A DNA stretch of 64,000 nucleotides from positions 3,040,001 through 3,104,000 of the forward strand of contig OZ242326.1 of the NCBI GenBank assembly GCA_965208325.1, written 5' to 3'. Under the pieces are notes generated by a model. It ran no database searches and was not told where the DNA came from. It worked only from the letters and a program-made list of their open reading frames with translations. This document shows positions 100-59,238 of the stretch, one piece after another. Position 1 is the stretch's first letter. Each line of letters starts with the position of its first letter. A program made the translations under genes and the position numbers. The stretch comes from Candidatus Poribacteria bacterium (GTDB lineage: Bacteria > Poribacteria > WGA-4E > PCPOR2b).

Positions 100-2310
100 C
101 TACTTGACAACCACCATCCGCCTTAGCGCGGTGAGATCGCCCGCTCGGAGTTGATAGTAATAAGTGCCGCTTGTGACGGGTTCGCCGTTTTGGTTCCGGC
201 CGTCCCAATACGCAGCGCTCGCTTTATCGCGGTAGATTCCTGAAACTTGATGCCCAATGTCAAGGATGCGGACGATATGCCCGCTCTGGTCGTAGATGCT
301 TAAGGTTACGACCGAATCGTTTGCCAATTGATACGGTATCCAAGTTTCGGGGTTGAATGGATTCGGATAATTCTGCAGCAGCGCCGTGCGTTTGATGTTT
401 CCAAAGGTTGTGATGCGTCGTTCCGACGGTTCCACCGCTAATTGGATTGAAGACTCAACTTCCCACAGCAATACGGTGCCGTCGCGACTCCCGCTCGCGA
501 GTATCCGTCCATCAGGATTGTATACGATACTCCAGACATCATCCGTATGCCCGTTGAGCGTTCGCAGAAGTTCTCCCGTATCGGCGTCCCACAGACGGAC
601 GGTATCGTCTGAACTCCCACTGGCGATAGTCTTGCCATCGGGGCTGAACGCAACGCTATTGACGAAACCCGTTTGCTCGCCGAGCGTGAGTCGGTGTTTT
701 CCCGTATCGGCATCCCACAGACGGATGGTATTGTCCTCACTCCCGCTAGCAATCGTTTCGCCATCGGGACTGTATGCAACGCTCCTAACTATATCCGAAT
801 GTCCGTTGAGCGTTCTCAGGTGTTTCCCAGTATCGACGTTCCACAGCCGGACGCTATCGTCCAAACTCCCGCTGGCGATAGTCTTACCATCGGGGCTGAA
901 CGCAACGCTACCGACTGAATTAGCATCCTCATTAATTGTTCTTAGACTTTCTCCGGTATTTGGGTTCCACAGTCTTATTGTCCCATCCGTACTACCACTG
1001 GCAAAGGTGCGCCCATCGGGACCGAACACAACGCTAAAGACCCGTTCCGTATGCCCTTTTAACTTTCGCTTTTGTTTTCCGGTATCGAAGTCCCAAAGCC
1101 GTATGGAAGAGTCTGAATTTCCACTGGCAATTGTTCTGCTATTGGGACTGAACACAACGCTATCGACCGAGACAACACTCGGTACGGTGAGCCCTCGGTC
1201 TTGTTTTCCAGTATCGCTCCTCCACAAGCGGATGGTAGTGTCCAAACTGCCGCTTGCGACGTAACGTCCATTTGGACTGAACGCAACACAATTGACCGAC
1301 CGCGTATGCCCTATGAGTGTTGGCAGGCTTTCACCTGTGTGCGCGTCCCACAGACGGATTGTAGCGTCCCGGCTCCCACTTGCTATGGTCTTTCCGTCGG
1401 GACTGAAAGCAACGCTATAAACAAAATGCGTATGCCCTCTGAACGTACGCATATGTTTTCCAGTTTTGGTGTGCCAAAGACGGACGGTATCGTCCCTGCT
1501 TCCAGTTGCGATGGAACGGCCATCCGGACTGAACACAACGCTAGCGACTAAACCCGTGTGTCCTTTGAGAGTTCGGAGGTGTTCTCCTGTATCGGCCTCC
1601 CACAATCGGATAGTTGCGTCTCCGCTTCCGCTAACGATGGTCGTGCCATCCGGACTGAACGCAACGCTACGGACCAAATTCGTATGCCCATTGTGCCCCT
1701 TGAGTGTTCGGAGGTGTTCTCCGGTGTCGGCGTCCCACAGACGGACGCTTGCGTCCTCATATCCCCCGGCGATAGTTCCTCCATCGGGACTGAACGCTAC
1801 GGTATATACCTTAGACCTGAGTCCGCTAAACTTTCGCAGTTGTTCTCCTGTATCGGCCTCCCACAATCGAATAGTGACCCCACTCGCACTAGCGATAGTT
1901 CCTCCATCGGGACTAAACACCACGCTATCAATCGAATTTGTATGTCCCTTGAGCGTTTGCAGTCGATCTCCTGTATCGGCGTCCCACAGACGGACGCTTG
2001 CGTCCTCATATCCCCCGGCGATAGTTCCTCCATCGGGACTAAACGCTACGCTAACCACCGACGTATTCCCGGCGAATAGTGCGACCTCTCGATGGGACAC
2101 CGTATCGTAGAGCCAAATTCCGATACTGCTGGCAACTGCAAGGCGCGTACCATCCGGCGAATATTGTATTTTGCTTAAACTGCCTTTACCAAGGCGGAAT
2201 TTAGCCCCTTCGGGCAGCCCCCATTGCGGAAAATCTTGGGCATAGCTGTGCGGATATAACGCGTACACAAAAAGCAATATGTTAAACGCCAAAAACATGG
2301 CTTTCTTCAT
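100..2310 (-). CDS. Secreted WD40-repeat protein (14 repeats) with C-terminal FlgD-Ig / T9SS type A-like domain
   Basis: Signal peptide MKKAMFLAF...SYA; 14 (F/Y)xP(D/N)x repeats with GH...LWD; ends LLQNYPNPFNPETWIPYQL...YWDGRN..GEPVTSGTYYY..RRMVVVK. Start moved to ATG 2310 (AGAGG upstream). Confidence 0.9.
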   Translation of the reverse strand: MKKAMFLAFNILLFVYALYPHSYAQDFPQWGLPEGAKFRLGKGSLSKIQYSPDGTRLAVASSIGIWLYDTVSHREVALFAGNTSVVSVAFSPDGGTIAGGYEDASVRLWDADTGDRLQTLKGHTNSIDSVVFSPDGGTIASASGVTIRLWEADTGEQLRKFSGLRSKVYTVAFSPDGGTIAGGYEDASVRLWDADTGEHLRTLKGHNGHTNLVRSVAFSPDGTTIVSGSGDATIRLWEADTGEHLRTLKGHTGLVASVVFSPDGRSIATGSRDDTVRLWHTKTGKHMRTFRGHTHFVYSVAFSPDGKTIASGSRDATIRLWDAHTGESLPTLIGHTRSVNCVAFSPNGRYVASGSLDTTIRLWRSDTGKQDRGLTVPSVVSVDSVVFSPNSRTIASGNSDSSIRLWDFDTGKQKRKLKGHTERVFSVVFGPDGRTFASGSTDGTIRLWNPNTGESLRTINEDANSVGSVAFSPDGKTIASGSLDDSVRLWNVDTGKHLRTLNGHSDIVRSVAYSPDGETIASGSEDNTIRLWDADTGKHRLTLGEQTGFVNSVAFSPDGKTIASGSSDDTVRLWDADTGELLRTLNGHTDDVWSIVYNPDGRILASGSRDGTVLLWEVESSIQLAVEPSERRITTFGNIKRTALLQNYPNPFNPETWIPYQLANDSVVTLSIYDQSGHIVRILDIGHQVSGIYRDKASAAYWDGRNQNGEPVTSGTYYYQLRAGDLTALRRMVVVK

Positions 2311-2674
2311 TGGTAAACCTCTACGTAATTCAGTAAGGAGATGTAGCTCCTTTGAAAATAAATTAGGATTGGGCGTATTTACACTCCCAACACAAGATGA
2401 AGACTTTCTCTTGCGCGCGAGCGCGATAACATAGCCTATATGGTGGATACACATGCAGGTGACAACTACATCCCAATCCGACCGATTTATTGACATAAGA
2501 AGTGATATGGGTTTTGACAAAACTTTCGTTTCAACTCCAACCGCATCAAGGCTAAAGAAATACCTGTGACAGTCTTTTTAAATACACCAAATGTATGTTC
2601 ATGCTGGTGCCTTCTTTGCACGCAGCACGGACGGACTTCGGGAATTCGGCAATTTTTTATTGAGTTCAACCATC

Positions 2675-4959: not shown

Positions 4960-6690
4960 TTGAAACGACCGAGGAAAATTTCCAGGCGGGCATTCCTGCA
5001 GCAGTCCTCCGGCGCGATTGCGATGGGATTCGCAGGATTAAATAGACTCTTTGCTGATTCCGAATCTGGACAGGGTTCAGGCGGTTTAATTGTAGAGCGG
5101 TACGGTAATCTGATTGCTGATCCCGACGGAATTCTTGACCTGCCGCCAGAATTTGCTTATCGGGTCTTCTCCAGGACAGGCGATATCATGGATGATGGCT
5201 TGTTGGTACCGGGCGACCACGACGGCATGGCCGCCTATCCGAGGCAAGACGGAAAGACGGTTCTTGTCCGCAACCACGAGTTAAGCGCTGACGAAATTGA
5301 AAAAAGCCCATACGGCACAGCGAACGAACTTGTCGGCCAGGTGCCGCTCGAAAAAATGTTCGACCCGGGCCTGCCGGATATTGGCGGTACCACAACCATG
5401 GTTTATGACACTCGAACCGGAACGCTCGAAAGCCATTTCTTGAGCCTTGCCGGTACGCTTCGGAATTGCGCTGGAGGACCGACGCCTTGGAATAGTTGGG
5501 TTACTTGCGAAGAATCCGTCCAGAGAGCGGTAGACGGCCATGAGCGAGATCACGGTTATAATTTTGACGTTCCCGCCGATGCAGCCGAATTAGTAGATCC
5601 GGTACCTCTGATAGATATGGGGCGGTTTTATCATGAGGCGATTGCTGTAGATCCAAAAAGCTGGATTGTCTACCAAACCGAAGACCGAAGTGATGGACTC
5701 ATCTATCGCTTCATTCCGAATCAACCCGGCAACCTCGCCGCGGGCGGCCGTCTTCAGGCGCTGGCAATTAGAGATATGCCAAGCGTGGACACTAGGAATT
5801 GGGTGCGCCGCGCCGTCCACGTCGGACAGACTTTAGAGGTCTCGTGGATTGATATTGTTAATGTCGAATCGCCGGAGGACGACCTGCGCCACCAAGGCTT
5901 CTCAAACGGTGCCGCGATGTTCGCGCGGGGTGAGGGTATGTGGTACGGCAACGGCGCAATTTACTTCGCGTGCACCAACGGCGGCGCCGCAAGGACCGGG
6001 CAGATTTGGCGGTACATTCCCAGCCGGTTTGAAGGCACAACAGGAGAGGATATCTACCCCGGCCAGCTTGACCTATTCATCGAGCCGAACAATAGCAATC
6101 TTTTGGAAAATGCCGACAATGTCACCGTCGCGCCGTGGGGTGATTTGATTCTGTGTGAAGATGGTGTCGGAGTACAGTTCCTAGTGGGTGTAACACCAGA
6201 AGGCAACCTCTATAAATTTGGAAAGAACTCTTTAAACGATTCGGAATTTGCGGGCGTTACGTTTTCGCCGGACGGTACAACCCTGTTCGTCAACATCCAA
6301 AATCCCGGCCTGACACTCGCCATCACGGGGCCTTTTCATTCAGCACGGGTTTTAGGTGAATCTGCGCGGAAACCCGCCGCAACCTTCGGTCAAATCAGGC
6401 GCGCCGAGCTGTTCCAAAACTACCCCAACCCCTTCAACCCTGATACATGGATTCCCTTTAAACTCGCCGAGGCTGCCGACGTAAGAATGGATATCTTTAG
6501 TTCGACCGGCAGCCTGGTGAGGCGGCTAAATCTGGGATACCTACCCGCCGGCGACTATCGCCATCGTTCTAAAGCAGCGTATTGGGACGGCCGAAACAGC
6601 TACGGAGAAAGAGCATCAAGCGGACTCTATTTCCTGCAGATGCACGCCGGTGATTATACATCCAGGCAGAAACTAGAGGTCCGGCAATAG
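4960..6690 (+). CDS. PhoX/DUF839-family alkaline phosphatase with Tat signal and C-terminal Ig-like (T9SS type A-like) domain
   Basis: SRRAFL twin-arginine motif; HDGMAA, RNHE, NCAGGPTPW.SWVTCEE, MGRFYHEA, ADN, CED and SEFAG motifs; C-terminal LFQNYPNPFNPDTWIP. Confidence 0.88.
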   Translation: MKRPRKISRRAFLQQSSGAIAMGFAGLNRLFADSESGQGSGGLIVERYGNLIADPDGILDLPPEFAYRVFSRTGDIMDDGLLVPGDHDGMAAYPRQDGKTVLVRNHELSADEIEKSPYGTANELVGQVPLEKMFDPGLPDIGGTTTMVYDTRTGTLESHFLSLAGTLRNCAGGPTPWNSWVTCEESVQRAVDGHERDHGYNFDVPADAAELVDPVPLIDMGRFYHEAIAVDPKSWIVYQTEDRSDGLIYRFIPNQPGNLAAGGRLQALAIRDMPSVDTRNWVRRAVHVGQTLEVSWIDIVNVESPEDDLRHQGFSNGAAMFARGEGMWYGNGAIYFACTNGGAARTGQIWRYIPSRFEGTTGEDIYPGQLDLFIEPNNSNLLENADNVTVAPWGDLILCEDGVGVQFLVGVTPEGNLYKFGKNSLNDSEFAGVTFSPDGTTLFVNIQNPGLTLAITGPFHSARVLGESARKPAATFGQIRRAELFQNYPNPFNPDTWIPFKLAEAADVRMDIFSSTGSLVRRLNLGYLPAGDYRHRSKAAYWDGRNSYGERASSGLYFLQMHAGDYTSRQKLEVRQ

Positions 6691-48633: not shown

Positions 48634-49185
48634 TCAGTCAAGGATTTTTACATTCCCTAATTTATCAGTAACGGCGACCGCCCCGCCGTCTTCACTAATA
48701 CCAATCGCCACCCCCGATTTCTCATCCCTACCCAAGACACCGACAAAACCACCGTTTGACCCGTAATCGAGCGACGCCACCGGTTTCCCGTCTTTGTTCC
48801 GGACCTCGACAATCCCGCCGTGCTCACCGATACCAAGCCACGCCATCGATTCCCCGTCCTTACCTTTAGCAGTCACACGCCCGCTGTCTTCATCGGATTG
48901 GAGAATCACCCGGAATTCCCCGTCCTTGCCCAAGACTCCGACACGCCCGCCGTGTTCATCACCAATGACACTCACCTTTGCGTCGGTTTCCAGCACGCTT
49001 GCGTATGTACTTGTAGTGAGAATCACCCTCACCTTGCCTGACGCATCAACGACTCTCAAACTTGCGCACTCAATATCCCCGAATTTATCGCGTTGCGCTG
49101 TCACTGACGACACCACCAACGCCGTGATGATACTGCCTACAATACCGCCAATGATACCGGTGATAACCTGATGTTTCGTGTGCAT
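48634..49185 (-). CDS. Hypothetical exported protein with G.V.V..KDG beta repeats
   Basis: N-terminal hydrophobic helix, ~22-aa repeats; AAAAGGAG RBS before ATG 49185. Confidence 0.75.
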   Translation of the reverse strand: MHTKHQVITGIIGGIVGSIITALVVSSVTAQRDKFGDIECASLRVVDASGKVRVILTTSTYASVLETDAKVSVIGDEHGGRVGVLGKDGEFRVILQSDEDSGRVTAKGKDGESMAWLGIGEHGGIVEVRNKDGKPVASLDYGSNGGFVGVLGRDEKSGVAIGISEDGGAVAVTDKLGNVKILD

Positions 49186-49389
49186 TGTAATCTCCTTTTG
49201 GGTTGGGTTAGCTACGAAAATCAACTTCAGACACTACACCTATCGTAGGCGGGGCATCTTGCCCCGCATTCATGTCGCCTGCCCATTGGAATTTCTACTT
49301 TTGAGTCGGGTTAGCTACAAAAATCATCTTAGGTAGTCAATATCGAGGCTAGGAAGCCTCTCCCACAAGCCAAATTCGGTCGGTTGATC

Positions 49390-52300
49390 TCACTGAAATT
49401 CGCCGCGCACCGTCACGGAACTCGCAATTGATAAGAAATCCCGCCCCTCCTCGACATGGTCGTTGTTATAGCTGAGGCCGAGGTTCAAATTCGCAGTCAG
49501 GCGGGTGCTTAGGTTGTACCGCGTTCGTAACGTCGTCTCGTATCGTTCCGATCTCTCCTCCCGATTCTTGCCATAGTTCTCCCGGCGGATAACCGTAGAC
49601 AACGTATTCGTGAGATCCAAATCGTGCTTGAGAGGGATTCGCCCGAGAATCGGTATTGGAAGACCTCCCTCTAAACGCAGCTTGTAATCAATGCTGAGAT
49701 TCGGCGTGATTATCAACGCCGAACTGTCAATTCCGCCGCCGCGTACCTGGTCTCGCATTGTCATGCGCACACCGAGCGCGCCCCTCGTTGAAGCACCCAG
49801 CGACTGGCTCCAACTGACGGACGGTTCTTGTGAGACACTCTCGTTAATAGTTGTATTGATGTTACTCTGATCCCGCTGCGTATGCCGGTATCTTAGCTGA
49901 AAGCTGGAGTTGGCATTAAACAGCTTGAGATTTCCTTCGTAGCTTACGGTTAGGTTGTCAGACGAAGTGCTTAGCGATTTCGTAAAACCCTTGCTCCGGG
50001 AGACGTTTGTGCCGAGCGACACCCATGACCATGGATCGACCGAAGTGCGAAATCCATACCGGTTTCGCTGCCGAGATTGGCTGCGCTCCGGTGTGTCGGC
50101 TGGTAGTTCCAGAATATCTCGAATTGAGGTTCCCGGTGCCAGTCGCTGAAGGGAGTCTTGCGTATCAAAACTAACATCAGCGTTTAACGCAAGACTCTCC
50201 ATGCTTCGACGAAGTAGACCGAATTGGCCATCACCCTGTTTGCCCTGCCTCTCCTTCAGCTTGCGCTCTAGTTCAGCTTTGTCTCGGGAAATCCAATCTC
50301 CCCTTTGGCTCTCTGCCTCTTCGAGCATGTCCATATCAACGTCCATACGCTCCAGCCGATCCAGCTCGCGTTGCCGTTTCTCTTCGAGTTGTATTTCTTC
50401 TTCAAAGCTGTCGAGTGTCTCTTGGCTTTTGTCCTTCAAATCTATCGCCTTCTCTGTTTGTTTAGAACCATGGAAGTCTATCGCACTCCCTATTCGTTCG
50501 CTTGATCCCTCCCTATTCGGTCTGTCGATCCCGTCCCCAATCGTATCAGTATTCGGCTCTCGGAACAGCCATCCAAACCATACTCTTGGGCGCATGCTAA
50601 GCCCAAAGCGTATATTCGCGTTGATTCGGGCGTTCTTCTGGTCGCGAAACCAGTCTTCACGGAAACTGATGCGGTTGCTGATTGTTGGACGAACGCCAAA
50701 AAAATCGCGGTTCAAACGCGGGTTCAAAGACAGCCGATGTTCACGGCCGCCGATGGTAAACTCCGATTTGGTTTCGGTTGACTCAGGTTCATCCGTAACG
50801 GTTAGGTCGGTTGTTACCGGCGTTGTTTGGAACGGTGTTCCAAAACTAGCCGAACCGAATCCACTTGAGCGATTCAGATTATCGTCGCGCCTTTCGAGCG
50901 TACGGCTAACCTCGTATGTCGGATTCAGGCTAAAACTTGCAACCGGACTGATATTGATTGAAATCGAACCGCTGTCAACTTTCTCGTCTCGGTTACGCCC
51001 ATAACCATAACCAAAAGATGAAAAACTGCTGCCGCCAGACTCTGTTGCCGTTAATGGATCGACCTCAACATCTTCGTGTCGGTACTGCACATCAAGCCCA
51101 AAGATTTGGCCAAGTCCGTATCGGAATGTGGATGTGTAGAGATTGCTAACCTCAGTCCCCTGGCGTTCGTTCCAGAAATTCTGTCGATTGTATGCAAAAC
51201 CTAAGGCAGGCACGAATCGGTGCGGACTAAAGCGCGCAGACAGATCACGGTTATGCGTTCTGCTTTTCCCGCTTTGAAAGGTGCTAAATGATCCGCGGCG
51301 GCTCTCCGTCTCAGATTCCTGTTCGCGGATGGAGTAGGTAATTGGCAGCCAGCGGAAAAGATGAAGATCGGCATCAACATTGTAATCGTTGCTGGTGGTG
51401 CTAAACCCTAGATCCTGCCGGCGTTGACGCCCTGTTTGTCCGGATGAACTTTCAAAATCCTTGTCCTGTCTTGCAAATCCGCCGCGGACACTGAGAAAAG
51501 GGCCAAGTTCTATAGACATGTTGGCGCGCCGCGCCCAGCCCGACCGTACAAGCGGATCACTCAAGTGGATTTCGTTTACCCAAACTTCCCCGCCAACCTC
51601 ATATTCCGTGTCGTTGCGAATGCCGACCAAAATTCCGCCAATGCTCTTAATTGAGAGTTGCGTACTGTTTGTACCACGGACGGCAAACCCATCCGGATGG
51701 CCGTCGGTTTCGTTTGTATCGACCGGCTCATTCATCTCCCCCTCAATGGTGTCAAGTGATTCTTCCTCCTGTGCCGCAGGTAGGTTTAAATCTGGGTACT
51801 CATTCCGTTTCACATCCTCCAGATCGATTTCTATCAGCTCCCATCCCTCAAAATCAATCACGCGCGTATATTCATAAAAGTCGTTAAGATTCTCAAAGAT
51901 ATTCACCCCTTCCTCCGGTTCCCGACTCGGTTCATCAAAGGACCCCGATGAATAAAAGGACGATCGGTAATTGGTGCGAATGCTCGGCGCCAGCCGCATC
52001 ACAAACGTGGAGTAACTCTTGTCGCCGTAAATCCACAGCTTGAGTTTATCATGTTTTGAGAAATCTTGGCCCTCGCCCTGCCGAAGACCCCGCAACTTTT
52101 GCGAAGTAACCCCGAAAGAACCCGGTAGTAAATTGTAGGTTAAAGTCAGCGTTTGTTCGCGCTGTTCCTGTTGGAATCCAAAAACACTGCTCGAAACAAA
52201 CGGATGGAGTTTCTTAAATGCCTTGTTGTCTTTAATCTGGTCGTAGGCATCTTGATAATCATCAAAGTTATAGTTGTCTTTCGTGGCAACAGTAAACACT

Positions 52301-55300
52301 TCTGCCGTCTCAGTTACAACGTTTCCCTGCTGAGTGACAACACCCTGTTGCCATTGGTTTCCTACGAGCTCGATTGAAGCCCACTCAAAAGCCCCATTAA
52401 CAGTGCCGGGGCGGTTCTTCCGCAGCCAAAAACGCAGGTGTTGCACAAACCCCAAGTTTGGGAGACGGCTACCCGCAGACGCCGCTTCCCGCAGCGGAAT
52501 GCTCAGGAATGTCCAACCGCTCTGGTTACGTTTCTTGACCCACTCCTCCGGAATATCGTTCAAGGGGATGGCAATCTCAAGGTAGGCGTCGATTGTGTCC
52601 AGAACCCCGTCGCCGTTCAAATCTTCAGTATCGAACTCTTTATTGTCCGCGCCAACCCGCCTCGGCTGGAGAGTAGCATTGTAATCCCATCCTTCATCTT
52701 CGCCGGTATCTAGCGACCCATTCGCACTGAATTTCTGAGAAGGGGGTAAATTTTCCAAATCTAGGTCAAGCGTATCAACTTTCCCGTCCCCGTTAGTATC
52801 TTCCAGACTCTTCGGAAGGTCTTCGGAATCAAGTCGGTTGTCAAAATCGCTGTCCTCGCTGACAACACCGAGATCGAGATATAACGTAACATCATCATCG
52901 CCGCGCACACGCAACCAAATTTCTAACGCCTCTCGATCGGAAAAATCAGCCCCAGAAGCTGATAGTCCATAAGAAAATCCACCCCATTCTTCAATGACAT
53001 CCGTAAAATCATACCCGACCTCCATCACAAGACGCTGCTCCGTCGATAGTGCGAAAGGGTTAATGGAGGATGCCGGTACGTCACGGTTCCGCATGTAATT
53101 GCCGACAGCCTTGGAATCGTCTTTATCTCTTAGCAGGACGCGAAAGAGCGCGCGATTCTCCGGTGTCAATTCCTCTATGAAGGGCGGACTGCAAACCCGC
53201 CAACTATGCTTAAACGTAGACACGCTTGTCGCCTCTCTCGCGCCTTCCATGCTATCAATTAACGCGACTCCTACGCTGTTGGGGTTGTTATGGGAGAATG
53301 CTGTCTCGCCGCTGAAATCAATCGACAGTGGAAAGTGCTTCACGGTAACAAAAGGCATTGGATTGAACAGCCATGCAAGGTTGAAGCTACGCCCGAAGCT
53401 CGTATTGACGTTGAAAGCTTGCAGACGATTCGGCGCATCGTTCACATCAGGAATACGGCTCGGCTTCTGCCCTGTATTCAGAATATAGCCCGTTGACAGG
53501 CTAAATCCCTTTCGGAATACCGGGTTAAAATACGAACTTGCGCCCGTGTAAAGCCGCCGCCGGGAACGTCCGCCCAAGCTTGAGTAATCGCTGCCAAATC
53601 CGCCTCCAAAACCGCCGCGACCGAATTGATTGCCAAAACCGCCAAAGGAGGTTCCCTTCCCAAAGCTATTGCTCTCTTCGCGTCTATCAAGACCGCCGCC
53701 TAACCGGTCAAATCGATTAGATTGATCTTCCTCGGCGGGCGTCTTCGACTTGGGAACGTAAGCGTATTCCAACCATACGCCAGCGACGGTTTGCTGCAAC
53801 GCGCTGCCGAAAGGCGTGCGCTCAAATTCAACCTCGATCTCGTCATATTCATCAAGCTTGGTAAAGAAGCGCAGGCTCCCCACCTCATAAATCATTGTGT
53901 AATCAATATCACGCTGTAGCAGCCGATTGTTAAGGCGCACCTTTTCGCTGCCGGGAATCACAAAGAGACCCACGTTGTAAGTTTCGGATTGGTAGGCGTA
54001 GTCGCACACTATTGTGTACACCTGATCACTGGGACGCGGGTTTTCGAGGTAAATCAGTTCGTTGTTCAGTTGCTCACGGAACGGGTAGTACGGGCTTGCC
54101 GGTTCTTCGATTACAAACGGCCGCAAGCTGGGAAAGATTAGAAGGCCGCGGTCAAAATCAATAAACTCCGGATCTACAACACCATCCCCGTTCCTGTCTA
54201 GTCCAAAGATTTGAATATAAGGAGTCGGTCCGTCAGGTGTATCGAACGCTTCACTGCCGCCCTGCTGCCAGATTGCAATCTGATAATCGCGAGGGTTGAT
54301 ATTTCGGTTGCCGAGGCTGTACACACGGCGCGCTTCAGTGCCGCGCAAACTTTTTTCTTTGAGGACGACGTAACCAACTTCTTCGCCCTCTTCATCAATC
54401 GAACCATCGCCGTTTTCATCTTCAAAGACATTACCCGGTTTCCCTACAACGCCTCCGCCATCCCCTAGATACTCATAGGCAACGACAATTCGGTAACTTG
54501 GTGAAATTTGCGTTAGGAATTCAATCTCTCCAGTTTCATAATCGATGTTATAGTCCTGGCCCGGGAATTGGAGGTTGAAATATCCCTGCACCGTCCGCTG
54601 GCCGCCTTGATTGTTGCCCGCAACGTTATCATCAATGTAAATTTCTTCGCTCCCTTTTTTTATTGGAGGATAGGAGCCGTGGAGGAGGCCGTCTTCTCCC
54701 AGTGAGATTGAGTAGAAACGCTCTTTTACGTAGTTTGCATCCGGAATCTGAACGCCTCCGCCATACCCCGAACCCGCACGCCTTGATTGTCCGCTGAAGC
54801 GGCGTGTCTCGGATATGCCTTTGCTGCGTGAACCAAACGCCGTCATTTTGACATCACCCAACGCCGCCACAGCTTCGAGCCCGAATAAATTCCGGTTGAC
54901 GTTCAGGAAACGAGTGTTTGGCAAATTCAGCGTAATATCGCCGAAAGAGAGTGTTTTGAGGATGCTGTCGTGTCCGCCCTCGTACCACACGCGAATTTTC
55001 TGTTCCTTTGCACCGCCGAATCCGCCGCTGTAGCCTCCATAGCCGCCATAACCGCCACCGAATGCATCACCGGAATCGCTATAATCAACCTCGACGTGTG
55101 TATGTTCCCCGACTCGACCGTGCAGGCCGACTTGAAGGGTTTGTCGGATAGTCGGTCCGGAGGCGCGGGGTACACCCCCAAAACGGGTCGTTCCAAAACC
55201 CCCGCCGAACCCACTGCCGTAACCGCCGCCGTAGCCGGTACTCCCATAGCCTCCGCCGAACCCACCCCCGAAATCGTCATAGCTGTCGTAGCCGTAAGAA

Positions 55301-55956
55301 GAGGTCAGTCCGAGATCCAGCCCAGAACCGAAACCGCCCTGGTACCCGCCCCCGAAGCGGTTAATGTCGCCCTGGCCGAAGTAGTGCGTATGATTCATTT
55401 CAACAGTTACCGATTTGTGTCCTGTAATCTGCAAAGTAGAATTCAGAGGCAGTACCAACCCTTTCTCTTCCTTTCCTGGCTCGTCATCGCGCAGTCGGTA
55501 CAAATCTCGAGGTTTAATCGCGAAGGGAGAATCCTTCCACCGCCGCAGCGCTTCAAGGTATGGCGTCACCATCTCTAGGGACGGATCTTCTTCCGGTGTG
55601 GACTCGAGTCCTGTATCCACTTTCCATGGATCGGCCCATTTTTTGCGCGGGGTTTTATGCTTTCTGAAAAAATCGAGAGCGGGCGCCTTACTTTCCGAAG
55701 ATGATTCAAATTTCTGCTTCACCGACTCATCAGAATCCTCTTCTACAAAGGTCTGTGAAGTGCCCTCAGATGCCTCCGCTCTGTCCTTTGGCGGCACCGT
55801 TCGGAGTTCCAAATAGCGATGGGTTAAGGCAGCATCTTTGCGGACAGGTTCCGCCTGGACGCGGGTGATAGAAGAGATAATTAAAATCACTCCGGAAGCG
55901 ATAAGCGTGAAGCGCGGAACGGAACGTACCGTGATGGGATTTGTTTTAGACTTCAT
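49390..55956 (-). CDS. sprA: SprA/Sov-like giant outer-membrane translocon (T9SS-like)
   Basis: Signal peptide; blocks recalled from SprA: YEG..DSILKTLSFGDITLNLP..LFG, SEKV..N..LLQRDIDYTMIYEVG, IDSMEG, EDLNGDG.LD, GEVWVNEIHL..GWA; long C-terminal beta-strand run ending EFQ. Confidence 0.78.
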   Translation of the reverse strand: MKSKTNPITVRSVPRFTLIASGVILIISSITRVQAEPVRKDAALTHRYLELRTVPPKDRAEASEGTSQTFVEEDSDESVKQKFESSSESKAPALDFFRKHKTPRKKWADPWKVDTGLESTPEEDPSLEMVTPYLEALRRWKDSPFAIKPRDLYRLRDDEPGKEEKGLVLPLNSTLQITGHKSVTVEMNHTHYFGQGDINRFGGGYQGGFGSGLDLGLTSSYGYDSYDDFGGGFGGGYGSTGYGGGYGSGFGGGFGTTRFGGVPRASGPTIRQTLQVGLHGRVGEHTHVEVDYSDSGDAFGGGYGGYGGYSGGFGGAKEQKIRVWYEGGHDSILKTLSFGDITLNLPNTRFLNVNRNLFGLEAVAALGDVKMTAFGSRSKGISETRRFSGQSRRAGSGYGGGVQIPDANYVKERFYSISLGEDGLLHGSYPPIKKGSEEIYIDDNVAGNNQGGQRTVQGYFNLQFPGQDYNIDYETGEIEFLTQISPSYRIVVAYEYLGDGGGVVGKPGNVFEDENGDGSIDEEGEEVGYVVLKEKSLRGTEARRVYSLGNRNINPRDYQIAIWQQGGSEAFDTPDGPTPYIQIFGLDRNGDGVVDPEFIDFDRGLLIFPSLRPFVIEEPASPYYPFREQLNNELIYLENPRPSDQVYTIVCDYAYQSETYNVGLFVIPGSEKVRLNNRLLQRDIDYTMIYEVGSLRFFTKLDEYDEIEVEFERTPFGSALQQTVAGVWLEYAYVPKSKTPAEEDQSNRFDRLGGGLDRREESNSFGKGTSFGGFGNQFGRGGFGGGFGSDYSSLGGRSRRRLYTGASSYFNPVFRKGFSLSTGYILNTGQKPSRIPDVNDAPNRLQAFNVNTSFGRSFNLAWLFNPMPFVTVKHFPLSIDFSGETAFSHNNPNSVGVALIDSMEGAREATSVSTFKHSWRVCSPPFIEELTPENRALFRVLLRDKDDSKAVGNYMRNRDVPASSINPFALSTEQRLVMEVGYDFTDVIEEWGGFSYGLSASGADFSDREALEIWLRVRGDDDVTLYLDLGVVSEDSDFDNRLDSEDLPKSLEDTNGDGKVDTLDLDLENLPPSQKFSANGSLDTGEDEGWDYNATLQPRRVGADNKEFDTEDLNGDGVLDTIDAYLEIAIPLNDIPEEWVKKRNQSGWTFLSIPLREAASAGSRLPNLGFVQHLRFWLRKNRPGTVNGAFEWASIELVGNQWQQGVVTQQGNVVTETAEVFTVATKDNYNFDDYQDAYDQIKDNKAFKKLHPFVSSSVFGFQQEQREQTLTLTYNLLPGSFGVTSQKLRGLRQGEGQDFSKHDKLKLWIYGDKSYSTFVMRLAPSIRTNYRSSFYSSGSFDEPSREPEEGVNIFENLNDFYEYTRVIDFEGWELIEIDLEDVKRNEYPDLNLPAAQEEESLDTIEGEMNEPVDTNETDGHPDGFAVRGTNSTQLSIKSIGGILVGIRNDTEYEVGGEVWVNEIHLSDPLVRSGWARRANMSIELGPFLSVRGGFARQDKDFESSSGQTGRQRRQDLGFSTTSNDYNVDADLHLFRWLPITYSIREQESETESRRGSFSTFQSGKSRTHNRDLSARFSPHRFVPALGFAYNRQNFWNERQGTEVSNLYTSTFRYGLGQIFGLDVQYRHEDVEVDPLTATESGGSSFSSFGYGYGRNRDEKVDSGSISINISPVASFSLNPTYEVSRTLERRDDNLNRSSGFGSASFGTPFQTTPVTTDLTVTDEPESTETKSEFTIGGREHRLSLNPRLNRDFFGVRPTISNRISFREDWFRDQKNARINANIRFGLSMRPRVWFGWLFREPNTDTIGDGIDRPNREGSSERIGSAIDFHGSKQTEKAIDLKDKSQETLDSFEEEIQLEEKRQRELDRLERMDVDMDMLEEAESQRGDWISRDKAELERKLKERQGKQGDGQFGLLRRSMESLALNADVSFDTQDSLQRLAPGTSIRDILELPADTPERSQSRQRNRYGFRTSVDPWSWVSLGTNVSRSKGFTKSLSTSSDNLTVSYEGNLKLFNANSSFQLRYRHTQRDQSNINTTINESVSQEPSVSWSQSLGASTRGALGVRMTMRDQVRGGGIDSSALIITPNLSIDYKLRLEGGLPIPILGRIPLKHDLDLTNTLSTVIRRENYGKNREERSERYETTLRTRYNLSTRLTANLNLGLSYNNDHVEEGRDFLSIASSVTVRGEFQ

Positions 55957-56244: not shown

Positions 56245-57918
56245 ATGAGTCGAATCCCAGACAGAGAACTGATTAAACGGAGTATTGATGGTGACAGCCA
56301 AGCTTTCTCGATCCTGATAAAACGCATTGAGACGCCGCTGGTGAAACTTGTCAAATCCAAAATCCCTGACACTGCATCTGCCGAGGACATTTTACAAGAA
56401 GTTCTTTTGGATGTGTGGCAAGGTTTAAAGGGACTTCGGGACCCGGACAGGTGGGCTGCATGGGTCATGCAGATTGCTCGGAACCGATGCCATGATTTCT
56501 TCCGGTTAGCTCAGCGTCGAGAAGCGCCCATGGCGAATAGCGATCTTGAACCCATCCTCAATAGACGAAGCCAACACGGCAGCTTTCAGGCTGATCTGCT
56601 TGATACTGTGCTCCAAACCCTGTCCCATGCGCCGCCGGATCATGTCGAAGCCGCTCACCTATTCTATCTCGAAGGTTTAACCATAAGACAAATTGCAGTG
56701 CAGTTGGGAAAGCCGGAAGGAACAATCAAGCGATGGCTTTCACACACCCGTAGTTTTGTTAGGAATCGCCTCGGATTGAGGCAGATGAGAATCGAAAGGA
56801 GGAAGACCATGACTTCCGCTAGCCCTTTAACCGGCAACTACCCTCAACAGAACACCCTCTGTTTACCGCCCGGCGCCGTCGCCCGGTTCGGCAAATACGG
56901 AAAGGATCAACCAGTTCAACACTCTCAAGAGATTAACCGTTGGATTGCCGCTTTTTCACGCAATGGGAAACACCTCGCCGGTCTCGACACAGACTACTCC
57001 CTGACGCTGTGGGATATTGAAAACGGGAAAAAAATCCGGACATTCGAGCAGGTGACAGGGCATAGTTTGCATGTTAATTTATGCCGAGGGGAAACTGTAA
57101 CCTGCTCATCCGATGGGCGCTTTCTGGTTATCAGTTTTTTTACAACCGGCGGGCAAGAAACAGTCAGATTGTGGAATGAGGGGGCTATCGCGGACTTCAC
57201 GCCGGAACAACCTGTATTTGCTGCGGCGGTATCACCGGATGGCCAACACATGGCAACTGGCGGCTGGGATAGAACAGTCACACTCTGGAATGTGGAAACC
57301 CAAACTGTCTATCGATCTCTGACAGGTCATACCGGCGAAATCTATGTGCTTGCGTTTTCGCCCGATGGAAAATTTCTAGTAAGTGGAGGAGCGGACAATT
57401 GGATAGAACATCCAGAGAGTGTAACTAGAAACACAGACGGTGAACTTGTGTTTATAATGAAAGAGGGTAAATCTCATTTTTTTACCCCTGATGAGAACCA
57501 TATTGACAAAACCGCCCGAGTTTGGGAGGTCGCCACGGGCAAAAATATTGCCACGCTCGAAAACCCGTCCCAGGTTAGAGCGGTTGCGTTTTCACCTGAT
57601 GGACATCACGTCGCAGCCGCTTCAAATGAACATGTTAATCTATGGCATACAGGGACATGGCAAAATATAGCGGCTCTCGATGTCAGAAAGGTTTCGTATA
57701 TTGCGTTTTCGCCGGACGGCTCCCGCCTCGCCACCGGCGGAACTTTGCCGGAGCAAACCATTAGGCTGTGGGATGTAGAATCTGGGAACCTCGTTGCTGA
57801 ATTTTCAGGACATAATAGCCAAGTTGAATCGCTCGCCTTTTCCCCCGATGGCCGTCTGCTTGCAAGCGGCAGTTTTGACCGCTCTATCTTGCTGTGGGAT
57901 GTCACACCGTACTCCTAA
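56245..57918 (+). CDS. ECF sigma factor fused to a WD40 propeller
   Basis: sigma2 (AEDILQE, W..QIARN), sigma4 (EGLTIRQIA..LG..EGTIKRWL), then LPPGAVARFG and WD40 repeats. Confidence 0.9.
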   Translation: MSRIPDRELIKRSIDGDSQAFSILIKRIETPLVKLVKSKIPDTASAEDILQEVLLDVWQGLKGLRDPDRWAAWVMQIARNRCHDFFRLAQRREAPMANSDLEPILNRRSQHGSFQADLLDTVLQTLSHAPPDHVEAAHLFYLEGLTIRQIAVQLGKPEGTIKRWLSHTRSFVRNRLGLRQMRIERRKTMTSASPLTGNYPQQNTLCLPPGAVARFGKYGKDQPVQHSQEINRWIAAFSRNGKHLAGLDTDYSLTLWDIENGKKIRTFEQVTGHSLHVNLCRGETVTCSSDGRFLVISFFTTGGQETVRLWNEGAIADFTPEQPVFAAAVSPDGQHMATGGWDRTVTLWNVETQTVYRSLTGHTGEIYVLAFSPDGKFLVSGGADNWIEHPESVTRNTDGELVFIMKEGKSHFFTPDENHIDKTARVWEVATGKNIATLENPSQVRAVAFSPDGHHVAAASNEHVNLWHTGTWQNIAALDVRKVSYIAFSPDGSRLATGGTLPEQTIRLWDVESGNLVAEFSGHNSQVESLAFSPDGRLLASGSFDRSILLWDVTPYS

Positions 57919-58017
57919 CATGGACAACTTCACGCCTGCCCGGAGTCCAGCCGAGATATGACAATTGGGCACACCCGCTTTTTGGAAAACTGTTTTGCAC
58001 GGAAAATCAACCTCATA

Positions 58018-59238
58018 ATGAGTTGTATCTCAGACAGAGAACTGATTAAACAGAGTATTGACGGTGACAGCCAAGCTTTCTCGATCCTGATAAAACGCGT
58101 TGAAGCGCCGCCGAATTATGCCGAAGCCGCTCACCTATTCTATCTCGAAGGCTTGACCATCAGACAAATTGCGGTACGGTTGGGGAAGCCGGAAGGAACC
58201 ATCAAGCGATGGCTTTCCCACACCCGTAGTTTTGTTAGGAGCCGCCTAGGATTGAGGCAGATTAGAACCGAAAGGAGGAAGATTATGACTTCCGATGCGC
58301 ACGAATCCGAATATTACCAACGTCGAGCGCTACGCGATATCGCCGCCTGCCGCGAAGACGGGGCAGCGTCGCTCAACCTGAAAAATCCCGTTGGGTCAAA
58401 AGAACTCCCCAGTGAGGTGTGGACACTGACTCAGTTGAAAGATCTCTCGCTGTGGTGGAACAATCTTGAGAGCATCTCAGAGGAAATCGGAAGATTGAAG
58501 CACCTGGAAAGTCTTTATGTAGAGAGTGACCAACTCAAACAGTTGCCAAACCAGATTGTTTCCCTGTCACGCTTGAGGCATCTGGAAGTTATTGGCGGCC
58601 AAATGACTGAATTGCCGGCGGACTTCTGCCGTCTTAGTGCATTACGGACGGTTATTTTCCAGCGCACGCAACTCCAGGAATTGCCCGCCAGCTTTGGGGA
58701 TTTAAACCGCCTTGAAGTCGCTGAGATGGACAATAACCAGTTTAGTAAGTTACCGGACGAATTGAGCGGATTGACCAATCTCCGCGTGTTAACGCTGCAA
58801 AGCCACCAGCTTTCGGTGTTACCCAAAACATTAGGTCAGCTCTCCGCTATGGAAGAACTGTATCTTGACTACAACCACTTAGATAGCTTACCCGAGGAAA
58901 TTTGTAATCTTCGAAACCTTGAGACGCTAGCCATAGCGAATAACCAAATTCACTCGCTGCCGCCGTGCATAGGCAATTTTTCCAAGCTACAGTATCTTTT
59001 CGTAGAGTCAAATCAGCTCGCGAATATTCCACGAGAAATTGGGCAACTTACCGAATTACGGGAGTTGGCGTTGAGTAACAATCAGTTAACTTCCTTACCT
59101 AAAGCGCTTGCAGACCTCCCAAACTTGCAAATTTTAAAACTCCACGACAATCCCCTGCCTGACCGGTTGATTCAGGCAGCGGAAAACGGAATTGATGAGT
59201 TTCGTCGGGCGGTCGCGGAGGTCACCTGTCAAGTTTAA
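58018..59238 (+). CDS. sigma4-only (sigma2-deleted) ECF remnant fused to leucine-rich repeats
   Basis: N-terminus nearly identical to the 56245 gene minus 99 aa; ~11 LxxLxLxxNxLxxLP repeats. Confidence 0.87.
   Translation: MSCISDRELIKQSIDGDSQAFSILIKRVEAPPNYAEAAHLFYLEGLTIRQIAVRLGKPEGTIKRWLSHTRSFVRSRLGLRQIRTERRKIMTSDAHESEYYQRRALRDIAACREDGAASLNLKNPVGSKELPSEVWTLTQLKDLSLWWNNLESISEEIGRLKHLESLYVESDQLKQLPNQIVSLSRLRHLEVIGGQMTELPADFCRLSALRTVIFQRTQLQELPASFGDLNRLEVAEMDNNQFSKLPDELSGLTNLRVLTLQSHQLSVLPKTLGQLSAMEELYLDYNHLDSLPEEICNLRNLETLAIANNQIHSLPPCIGNFSKLQYLFVESNQLANIPREIGQLTELRELALSNNQLTSLPKALADLPNLQILKLHDNPLPDRLIQAAENGIDEFRRAVAEVTCQV

Follow-up and report, generated by a model that had tools for sequence, protein, structure and literature searches.

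Marine sponges harbor Poribacteria as some of their most abundant and widespread symbionts, and the many secreted WD40, leucine-rich repeat (LRR), and other "eukaryote-like" proteins that these bacteria encode are believed to act in host contact. Here we describe a 64,000-nucleotide stretch of poribacterial DNA (the window; positions 3,040,001-3,104,000 of a 4.71 Mb genome assembled as one contig and 95.6% complete by marker genes) that carries, on the minus strand at 49390..55956, a gene resembling sprA/sov, which encodes the outer-membrane channel in type IX secretion systems (T9SS). Its product is a predicted giant outer-membrane beta-barrel translocon. The same window encodes two secreted proteins that end in a related immunoglobulin (Ig)-like C-terminal domain (CTD) and are candidate cargo. 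On the comparisons reported below, we consider it likely that the gene is the poribacterial sprA/sov ortholog and that its product serves as the channel for CTD-bearing proteins in a T9SS-like route, every functional step of which we infer.

The SprA-like gene consists of a 2188-aa open reading frame (ORF) opening at ATG. Its product begins with charged residues followed by a hydrophobic stretch and the sequence ...RVQA/EP, a layout that resembles a Sec signal peptide (judged by eye rather than with a predictor). Low-complexity runs rich in Gly and Tyr occupy residues 218-257, 299-315, 781-793, and 1640-1653, and a charged, predicted-helical insert (EEEIQLEEKRQRELDRLERMD...) at approximately residues 1850-1921 breaks up the strands of the C-terminal barrel. 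This insert is modeled with low-to-moderate confidence and varies among Poribacteria. Insertion mapping against distant SprA sequences yielded just two segments specific to Poribacteria, both short. An earlier note on this DNA, made from the letters alone, had described a 2188-aa signal-peptide protein with a long terminal run of beta strands; the frame runs uninterrupted through 2188 codons, and in a structural model the final ~750 residues contain approximately 26 long strands in antiparallel arrangement.

Searches identified 118 homologs of the protein, 95 of which are of similar length and share 39-95% identity with it. Named homologs are annotated as "Candidatus Poribacteria bacterium, hypothetical protein," in agreement with the lineage that the earlier note had thought probable. 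Cluster-member names are poribacterial throughout, with the exception of one partial record labeled Thermotogae in a Poribacteria cluster; NCBI taxonomy lists Poribacteria under "Bacteria candidate phyla," without a named superphylum. Among 151 sampled Poribacteria genomes the gene was detected in 150, the sole miss being an 81%-complete genome, and it is present in all 131 high-quality genomes. A look-up of RNA runs turned up none containing the gene. Could the ORF nonetheless be a chance frame, a pseudogene, or an assembly artifact? We assign this a negligible probability. The frame is uninterrupted over its 2188 aa, the 95 similar-length homologs span a wide range of identity, nearly every sampled genome has an intact ORF of ~2000-2330 aa, and the poribacterial family alignment (A2) contains hundreds of invariant columns. 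Conservation already refutes the artifact explanation.

The first candidate cargo gene lies at 100..2310 on the minus strand. Its ORF is open to 2520, and the probable start is an internal ATG at 2310, which is followed by a signal-peptide-like sequence (MKKAMFLAFNILLFVYALYPHSYAQD) and agrees with the 100..2310 assignment. It encodes a secreted WD40-repeat protein with 13 WD40 stretches (Pfam) and a CTD formed by its last 95 residues (103..387, minus strand; TALLQNYPNPFNPETWIPYQL...RRMVVVK), which reaches 27.4 bits against a cut-off of 23 on TIGR04183. The second gene, at 4960..6690 on the plus strand, encodes a PhoX-type alkaline phosphatase (Pfam PhoX, 278.8 bits). Its last 95 residues (6403..6687, plus strand) score 30.1 bits on Pfam FlgD_ig (cut-off 27) and, on TIGR04183 (cut-off 23), 18 bits by themselves and 23.4 bits together with neighbors in the frame. 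Both ~95-residue domains open with ...LLQNYPNPFNPETWIPY..., hold the motif ...QNYPNPFNP[ED]TWIP..., and end in ...RRMVVVK or ...KLEVRQ; a further stretch, ...TTFGNIKRTALLQNYPNPF..., is seen in both proteins. The two secreted proteins with an Ig-like "QNYPNPFNP" domain that had been proposed at 100..2310 and 4960..6690 are therefore confirmed. The N terminus of the PhoX-type protein is twin-arginine-like (KISRRAFLQ), the one such motif among 64 CTD proteins of the genome; a folded protein exported by the twin-arginine translocation (Tat) pathway and then entering a T9SS-like channel would be unusual.

Homology to SprA and Sov

The hidden Markov model (HMM) TIGR04189 of NCBIfam (T9SS outer membrane translocon Sov/SprA) matches the SprA-like protein at E = 3.2e-47, in four collinear stretches that cover model positions 133-1502 of 2319. 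The SprA blocks that the earlier note had recognized in the protein are thus recovered by a curated model. Several results weigh against assigning the protein to this family. The TIGR04189 score, 160.6 bits, is below the 200-bit equivalog cut-off, and the score on Pfam SprA_N (PF14349), 22.8 bits, is below the cut-off of 27; neither threshold is passed in any of the 151 Poribacteria. A phmmer search with the single sequence against Protein Data Bank (PDB) sequences returned no match, and the Poribacteria-only profile A2 retrieved nothing from the PDB at E <= 0.01. Because the score falls under the naming threshold, which was trained on Bacteroidota, we file the protein as a divergent homolog or ortholog and not as an equivalog-level member, and because neither the single sequence nor A2 reaches a PDB entry, its tie to solved SprA rests on the HMM and on intermediate sequences. 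Scores under the naming cut-offs also account for the public "hypothetical protein" label of the cluster; an HMM retrained on the poribacterial sequences would mend annotation across the whole phylum.

The intermediates were compared as profiles: A2, built from 17 poribacterial sequences; A3, built from 19 distant homologs; and a mixed profile, A1. The A3 homologs are ~20% identical to the poribacterial protein and most contain PF14349; one derives from Longimicrobiales, which we take to belong to Gemmatimonadota. Aligning A2 with A3 (hhalign) gave a probability of 100% and E = 7e-118 over 1579 columns, extending from residue 266 to beyond residue 2113. A3, in turn, matches the solved Flavobacterium johnsoniae SprA (6h3i_A) end to end (chain 4-2385) at E = 2.3e-261, and A1 matches 6h3j_A at E = 1.8e-192. 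The solved SprA was reached solely by profiles that take in distant homologs.

Structural modeling addressed the part of the protein to which the HMM extends least. AlphaFold2 was run on residues 1000-2188 with a 30-sequence alignment, leaving the N-terminal half outside; the resulting model has a mean pLDDT of 70 and a pTM of 0.55. In addition to the antiparallel strands noted above, it displays a jelly-roll insert and the helical insert. SprA chains occupied ranks 1-4 in a Foldseek search (E from 4.9e-26 to 2.7e-19), followed by MtrB at 6.8e-6. The TM-scores are low (0.32-0.35), and VIA-align, which does not separate SprA from other barrels, scored the generic barrel MtrB slightly above SprA. 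The two checks that the earlier note had suggested for this gene consequently favor its proposal, each with a caveat: the SprA HMM match is significant and falls under the naming cut-off, while a profile-profile chain reaches the solved protein, and SprA leads the Foldseek results at low TM-scores. By these comparisons of sequence, profile, and predicted fold, we regard the protein as a genuine, very divergent SprA/Sov ortholog of Poribacteria.

CTD proteins, putative carrier barrels, and PorU-like sortases

The CTD is not confined to the window. TIGR04183 has 56 matches in the genome, 51 of them over its cut-off, and an HMM iterated from the two window CTDs gathered 64 ORFs of 114-3126 aa. 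In every one of the 64, the CTD ends within 15 residues of the C terminus. A signal-peptide-like N terminus was assigned to 50 by a crude hydrophobicity rule, and 13 contain at least three WD40-like motifs by a crude motif count. The domains share a conserved tail (...MVI[VL]K), and an alignment of 12 of them (A5) has a mean column identity of 71%. An AlphaFold2 model of the CTD (pLDDT 89.7) is an eight-strand, Ig-like sandwich whose fold matches include the CTDs of PorU (E = 4.7e-4) and PorZ (8.9e-4) as well as translocon-bound CTDs of T9SS substrates (6e-3 for NucA, and 2e-2). The genome holds many secreted proteins with a type-A-like CTD at the extreme C terminus.

Some of these genes form runs. 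WD40 + CTD paralogs of ~734-806 aa, all on the minus strand, extend over C1:3021426-3042520 and reach into the window at 100..2520; further runs lie at C1:2707517-2716767 and C1:4361444-4370911. Repeat-protein cargo genes have been amplified locally.

Proteins of the PorV/PorQ family, which shuttle cargo in the T9SS, are present as a family in this genome. Five proteins pass the 90-bit cut-off of NF033709 (99-234 bits), two exceed the 27-bit cut-off of Pfam PorV (63.6 and 29.3 bits), and a local HMM collected 15 members in all. For five of the 15 genes, the distance to a CTD gene is 200 bp or less (random mean 0.9; five was reached in 7 of 5000 shuffles). One member is a PorP/SprF-like gene at C1:1954623-1955576 (minus strand), which scores 28.9 bits on Pfam PorP_SprF (cut-off 22.3) and 34.3 bits on TIGR03519 (cut-off 90.55); it is situated directly upstream of the gene for a CTD protein with a tail weakly similar to type B CTDs. 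All of the PorV-family matches fall outside the window, and a Pfam scan of the 25 window ORFs detected no porK, porL, porM, porN, or porV, as the earlier note had also stated. Across the phylum, the PorV family exceeds its cut-off in 61/61 sampled Poribacteria (8-15 matches each), and the CTD was found in 41/41 (17-106 matches each).

A second association of the carrier family is with transport. Eight of the 15 PorV-family genes have, at a distance of 7.5 kb or less, a DUF6785 gene resembling oligopeptide transporters (OPT), against a random mean of 1.4 and with eight reached in 0 of 5000 shuffles. The genome encodes ~25 paralogous multi-pass membrane proteins of ~640 aa with this architecture (Pfam DUF6785 + DUF6784; for example C1:159519-161459, C1:4248651-4250588, and C1:2934867-2936792), and in an Atlas neighbor cluster, 11% of members carry the OPT oligopeptide-transporter family. 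The association may be a sign of uptake loci or of a partner that the carriers have in the inner membrane. ExbB, ExbD, and TonB were not found among the genes beside four of the PorV-family loci.

Two PorU-like sortases of the C25 peptidase family, each ~2100 aa, were identified by HMM at C1:4021620-4027898 (plus strand) and C1:3715227-3721577 (minus strand). The 2092-aa protein scores 427.4 bits on NF033707, above the cut-off of 420, and the 2116-aa protein scores 364.7 bits. Both have a CTD of their own and a C25 propeptide in addition to the Peptidase_C25 domain, which scores 274 and 271 bits. In a phmmer comparison, the 2092-aa protein matches Porphyromonas gingivalis PorU (6za2_A) at E = 4.3e-29; the GHGG and Cys motifs, presumably the site of the catalytic pair, are in register. 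The ~1000 extra residues of the poribacterial sortases sit between the peptidase domain and the CTD. PorU-like matches occur in 61/61 sampled Poribacteria, with 1-4 per genome, about 2-3 of them large copies, and ORFs mostly of ~1700-2300 aa. PorZ models were matched in the genome only by CTD or propeller fragments. The genome-wide search for parts that the earlier note had called for favors its proposal, with a caveat: PorU-like, PorV/PorQ-family, and PorP/SprF-like proteins are present, and GldK/L/M/N (see below) and PorZ were not detected.

In several poribacterial genera, sprA and a PorU-like gene lie on the same strand within about 10-40 kb of one another, an observation made on related genomes that are not independent. 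The genomes with this loose linkage are G044, G034, G048, G054, G059, G016, G049, G053, G024, and G032. In G044 the HMM matches to sprA and PorU are ~10 kb apart, whereas in the genome studied here they are separated by more than 600 kb.

The proposed export route and the search for a motor

The homology of each part, the strictly C-terminal tag, and conservation throughout the phylum together make an export route likely. In the scheme we propose, ~64 CTD proteins, including the pair in the window, would reach the periplasm by Sec, with the PhoX-type protein probably traveling by Tat. The CTD would then be recognized at the SprA-like channel, and the cargo would cross it to carrier barrels of the PorV/PorQ/PorP family, several of which are encoded beside their cargo. 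Finally, one of the two giant PorU-like C25 peptidases would remove the CTD and perhaps re-attach the protein to the surface. The earlier note had envisaged a divergent T9SS-like route exporting eukaryote-like repeat proteins. Homologs of the machinery support the first part of that claim; the second holds for a fraction of the predicted cargo, given that 13 of the 64 CTD proteins have three or more WD40-like motifs by the crude count.

Whether cargo follows the channel cannot be assessed inside Poribacteria, because no high-quality genome is without the SprA-like gene. For a control, named Bacteroidota were located by a 16S probe scan, and an even sample of 51 genomes was taken from the GTDB phylum so defined, that of Flagellimonas. 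SprA was detected in 41 of the 51, and all 41 have CTD matches, ranging from 8 to at least 91. Nine of the 10 SprA-negative genomes have no CTD match, and the tenth has a single match under the cut-off. GldL, GldM, GldN, and Pfam GldM_1st exceed their cut-offs in the same 12 of the 51 genomes. In this sample, CTD cargo tracks SprA and not GldLMN matches, the co-occurrence that would be expected from the earlier note.

Several findings speak against this route, and most of them lend weight to a different explanation, in which the SprA-like barrel has another outer-membrane role, the CTDs are Ig domains of the FlgD type used for adhesion or anchoring, export proceeds by other means (type II secretion or vesicles), and only ancestry is shared with the T9SS. 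The CTD is at least as near to FlgD Ig domains (E = 1.2e-5 by sequence, 1.1e-4 by fold) as to T9SS CTDs, and FlgD provides the best PDB matches of the CTD sequence profile. No PorV-family protein reaches the equivalog cut-offs of PorV (NF033710, best score 119.9 against 250 bits) or PorQ (best 138.3 against 220), and the SprA-like protein likewise scores below the SprA one. The proximity of eight of the 15 PorV-family genes to OPT-like DUF6785 genes means that some of these barrels may be uptake channels and not secretion carriers. No motor was found. In addition, sprA stands alone at this locus, with no other T9SS gene adjoining, and its neighbors are conserved in none of eight other Poribacteria genomes from other genera. 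We nonetheless judge the alternative improbable. A position at the extreme C terminus in 64/64 proteins, with a conserved ...MVI[VL]K tail, is what would be expected of a signal; all of 61/61 genomes encode a C25 peptidase of the PorU type that has the catalytic motifs and a CTD; in the control, the presence of CTD genes follows that of SprA exactly; and carrier and cargo genes adjoin. Each of these favors a type IX route.

The ring and motor of the T9SS (PorK/L/M/N, or GldK/L/M/N) were not detected. The GldL, GldM, and GldN models have no match at E <= 0.1 in the complete genome, and GldK matches are limited to the generic FGE-sulfatase domain. A K-L-M-N-like gene order was found beside none of the 12 FGE-sulfatase-like genes. 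A genome-wide topology screen for a protein with two transmembrane helices followed by one with a single helix returned three pairs, consisting of periplasmic binding proteins, lectin-like proteins, and a PorP-like/CTD pair; none is an L/M candidate. In 61 Poribacteria, GldM has two marginal matches (E = 0.004-0.006, 16-17 bits). These negatives also count against a T9SS-like assignment, but they are weak evidence because 29 of the 41 SprA-positive genomes in the Bacteroidota sample equally lack GldL/M/N matches. Among the remaining SprA-positive genomes of that sample, GldK was matched at E <= 1e-20 in one of five tested. SprA and cargo without detectable K/L/M/N components are common, which may reflect real absence or divergence past recognition.

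We lean slightly toward real absence, that is, toward Poribacteria having no PorK/L/M/N homolog and obtaining coupling or energy from something else. A competing and rather less probable account holds that Poribacteria possess a complete T9SS that works as it does in Flavobacterium, with ring and motor counterparts too diverged for models derived from Bacteroidia. It draws strength from the control, where the Gld models match the same 12 of 51 genomes and yet SprA and CTD cargo occur in 41, and from the dependence of secretion on the motor in studied species, as described in the portions of the literature covered here. It is less easily reconciled with the breadth of the GldM model within class Bacteroidia: among 10 named genomes spanning Flavobacteriales to Bacteroidales, 9 score over its cut-off. 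Marginal matches are also lacking: GldL/M/N have none at E <= 0.1 here, and the two low-scoring GldM matches are the sum for 61 Poribacteria. Neither a K-L-M-N-like order nor an L/M-like topology pair was found in the complete genome.

A fuller version of the motor-less interpretation, which we hold only tentatively, is that Poribacteria run a pared-down type IX pathway comprising SprA, expanded carriers, and double-length PorU, with no PorK/L/M/N, and that the same applies to the 29 of 41 control genomes. Were this true, the channel, carrier, and sortase would represent a widespread and possibly ancestral type IX core to which Bacteroidia later added the rotary motor. In that case, proteins would cross the outer membrane through SprA either with no power supply or with one from some other source. 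The poribacterial set and the control sample together make one ask whether type IX secretion universally includes the PorKLMN motor.

The genes that surround sprA in the window offer no further T9SS component. Downstream, at a distance of 166 bp, lies a 196-aa ORF on the minus strand (48634..49224) with a single membrane helix at the N terminus along with short repeats rich in Gly (GGRVGVLGKDGE...); it has no Pfam match and is absent beside sprA in the eight other genomes. In three of those eight, genes for GH2, a dehydrogenase, and an aminotransferase are located downstream of sprA. Upstream and divergent from sprA are two plus-strand genes identified by Pfam, one at 56245..57918 encoding Sigma70_r2 (residues 24-91) and WD40 repeats, and one at 57958..59238 encoding Sigma70_r4_2 and LRRs. 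Pieces of sigma-70 are fused to repeat domains in both.

Comparison with known secretion systems

The closest counterparts of the SprA-like protein are F. johnsoniae SprA (PDB 6H3I, 6H3J, 8GL6, 8GL8) and P. gingivalis Sov. SprA/Sov, characterized in Bacteroidota, is a 36-strand barrel that has a lateral opening and a plug site on the periplasmic side, binds PorV, and lets CTD cargo through. The proteins are of the same size class (2188 aa versus 2403 aa) and are alike in their signal peptide, in near-full-length homology (through intermediates), and in long C-terminal barrel strands with a jelly-roll insert, for which SprA is the best fold match. In both cases, too, the gene stands alone, and CTD cargo, PorV-family, and PorU-like genes occur along with it. 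The poribacterial protein differs in being only ~20% identical to its nearest non-poribacterial homologs and below both curated cut-offs, in its Gly/Tyr-rich stretches and the charged helical insert at ~1850-1921, and in its genomic context, where GldK/L/M/N partners were undetected. The pathway as a whole departs from the textbook T9SS in extreme sequence divergence, double-length sortases, an expanded and partly OPT-linked set of carriers, and the lack of a detectable ring or motor.

Similar mixtures of likeness and difference characterize the other parts. Relative to P. gingivalis PorU (6ZA2), the poribacterial sortases have the same C25 domain, propeptide, and CTD, and one copy exceeds the NF033707 threshold; they are about twice as long (2092 and 2116 aa versus a 1156-residue chain), number two in the studied genome, and were found there without a PorZ partner. 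The core of the poribacterial CTD has its best sequence and fold match in the Ig-like domain of FlgD (PF13860; PDB 3OSV, 7EH9). Unlike that domain, it is always the last domain, on otherwise unrelated secreted proteins; its N-terminal strand reads NYPNPFNPETWIP, its end is basic (...RRMVIVK), and it matches TIGR04183 over the cut-off. In F. johnsoniae, the portion of PMC12618676 covered here describes PorV, PorQ, and PorP-SprF shuttle barrels with genetically linked cargo, and the adjacency of carrier and cargo genes in Poribacteria echoes the pairs reported there. The two sets agree in family-level HMM membership; the poribacterial family is expanded to 15, with no member over the PorV or PorQ equivalog cut-offs, and we found no description of an association like that of 8 of its 15 genes with OPT-like DUF6785 genes.

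The CTD tags of this candidate route were reported before its putative machinery. In the part of their paper considered here, Kamke et al. 2014 (PMC3909097) reported that many poribacterial eukaryote-like proteins, especially those with WD40 repeats, carry TIGR04183; they recorded no Por-system structural genes and said of the pathway for export that it "remains to be revealed." We found no literature describing T9SS machinery in Poribacteria (subscription-only papers and the 2014 supplements, such as Table S9, were outside the scope of this search). The sprA-like, PorU-like, and PorV-family genes, present in essentially every sampled Poribacteria genome, supply a concrete candidate for that pathway. 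A T9SS in Flavobacterium was called the first record in putative sponge symbionts in the section of PMC13052501 covered here. Within the Fibrobacteres-Chlorobi-Bacteroidetes (FCB) group, a T9SS has been reported or suspected in Fibrobacterota, Gemmatimonadota, Chlorobiota, Ignavibacteriota, and Cloacimonadota, according to the passages considered of PMC11285876, PMC5837995, and PMC6851124; these include BLAST hints in Chlorobi, Fibrobacteres, and Ignavibacteriae (PMC5837995) and proposed T9SS signals in Fibrobacter cellulases (PMC6851124). In the same passages, Poribacteria are missing from the lists of phyla, and no comparable inventory of components is given. Like those phyla, Poribacteria combine CTD-tagged proteins with T9SS-like genes outside Bacteroidia, and the set described here would extend T9SS machinery to a phylum beyond those that current reviews, as far as covered here, include.

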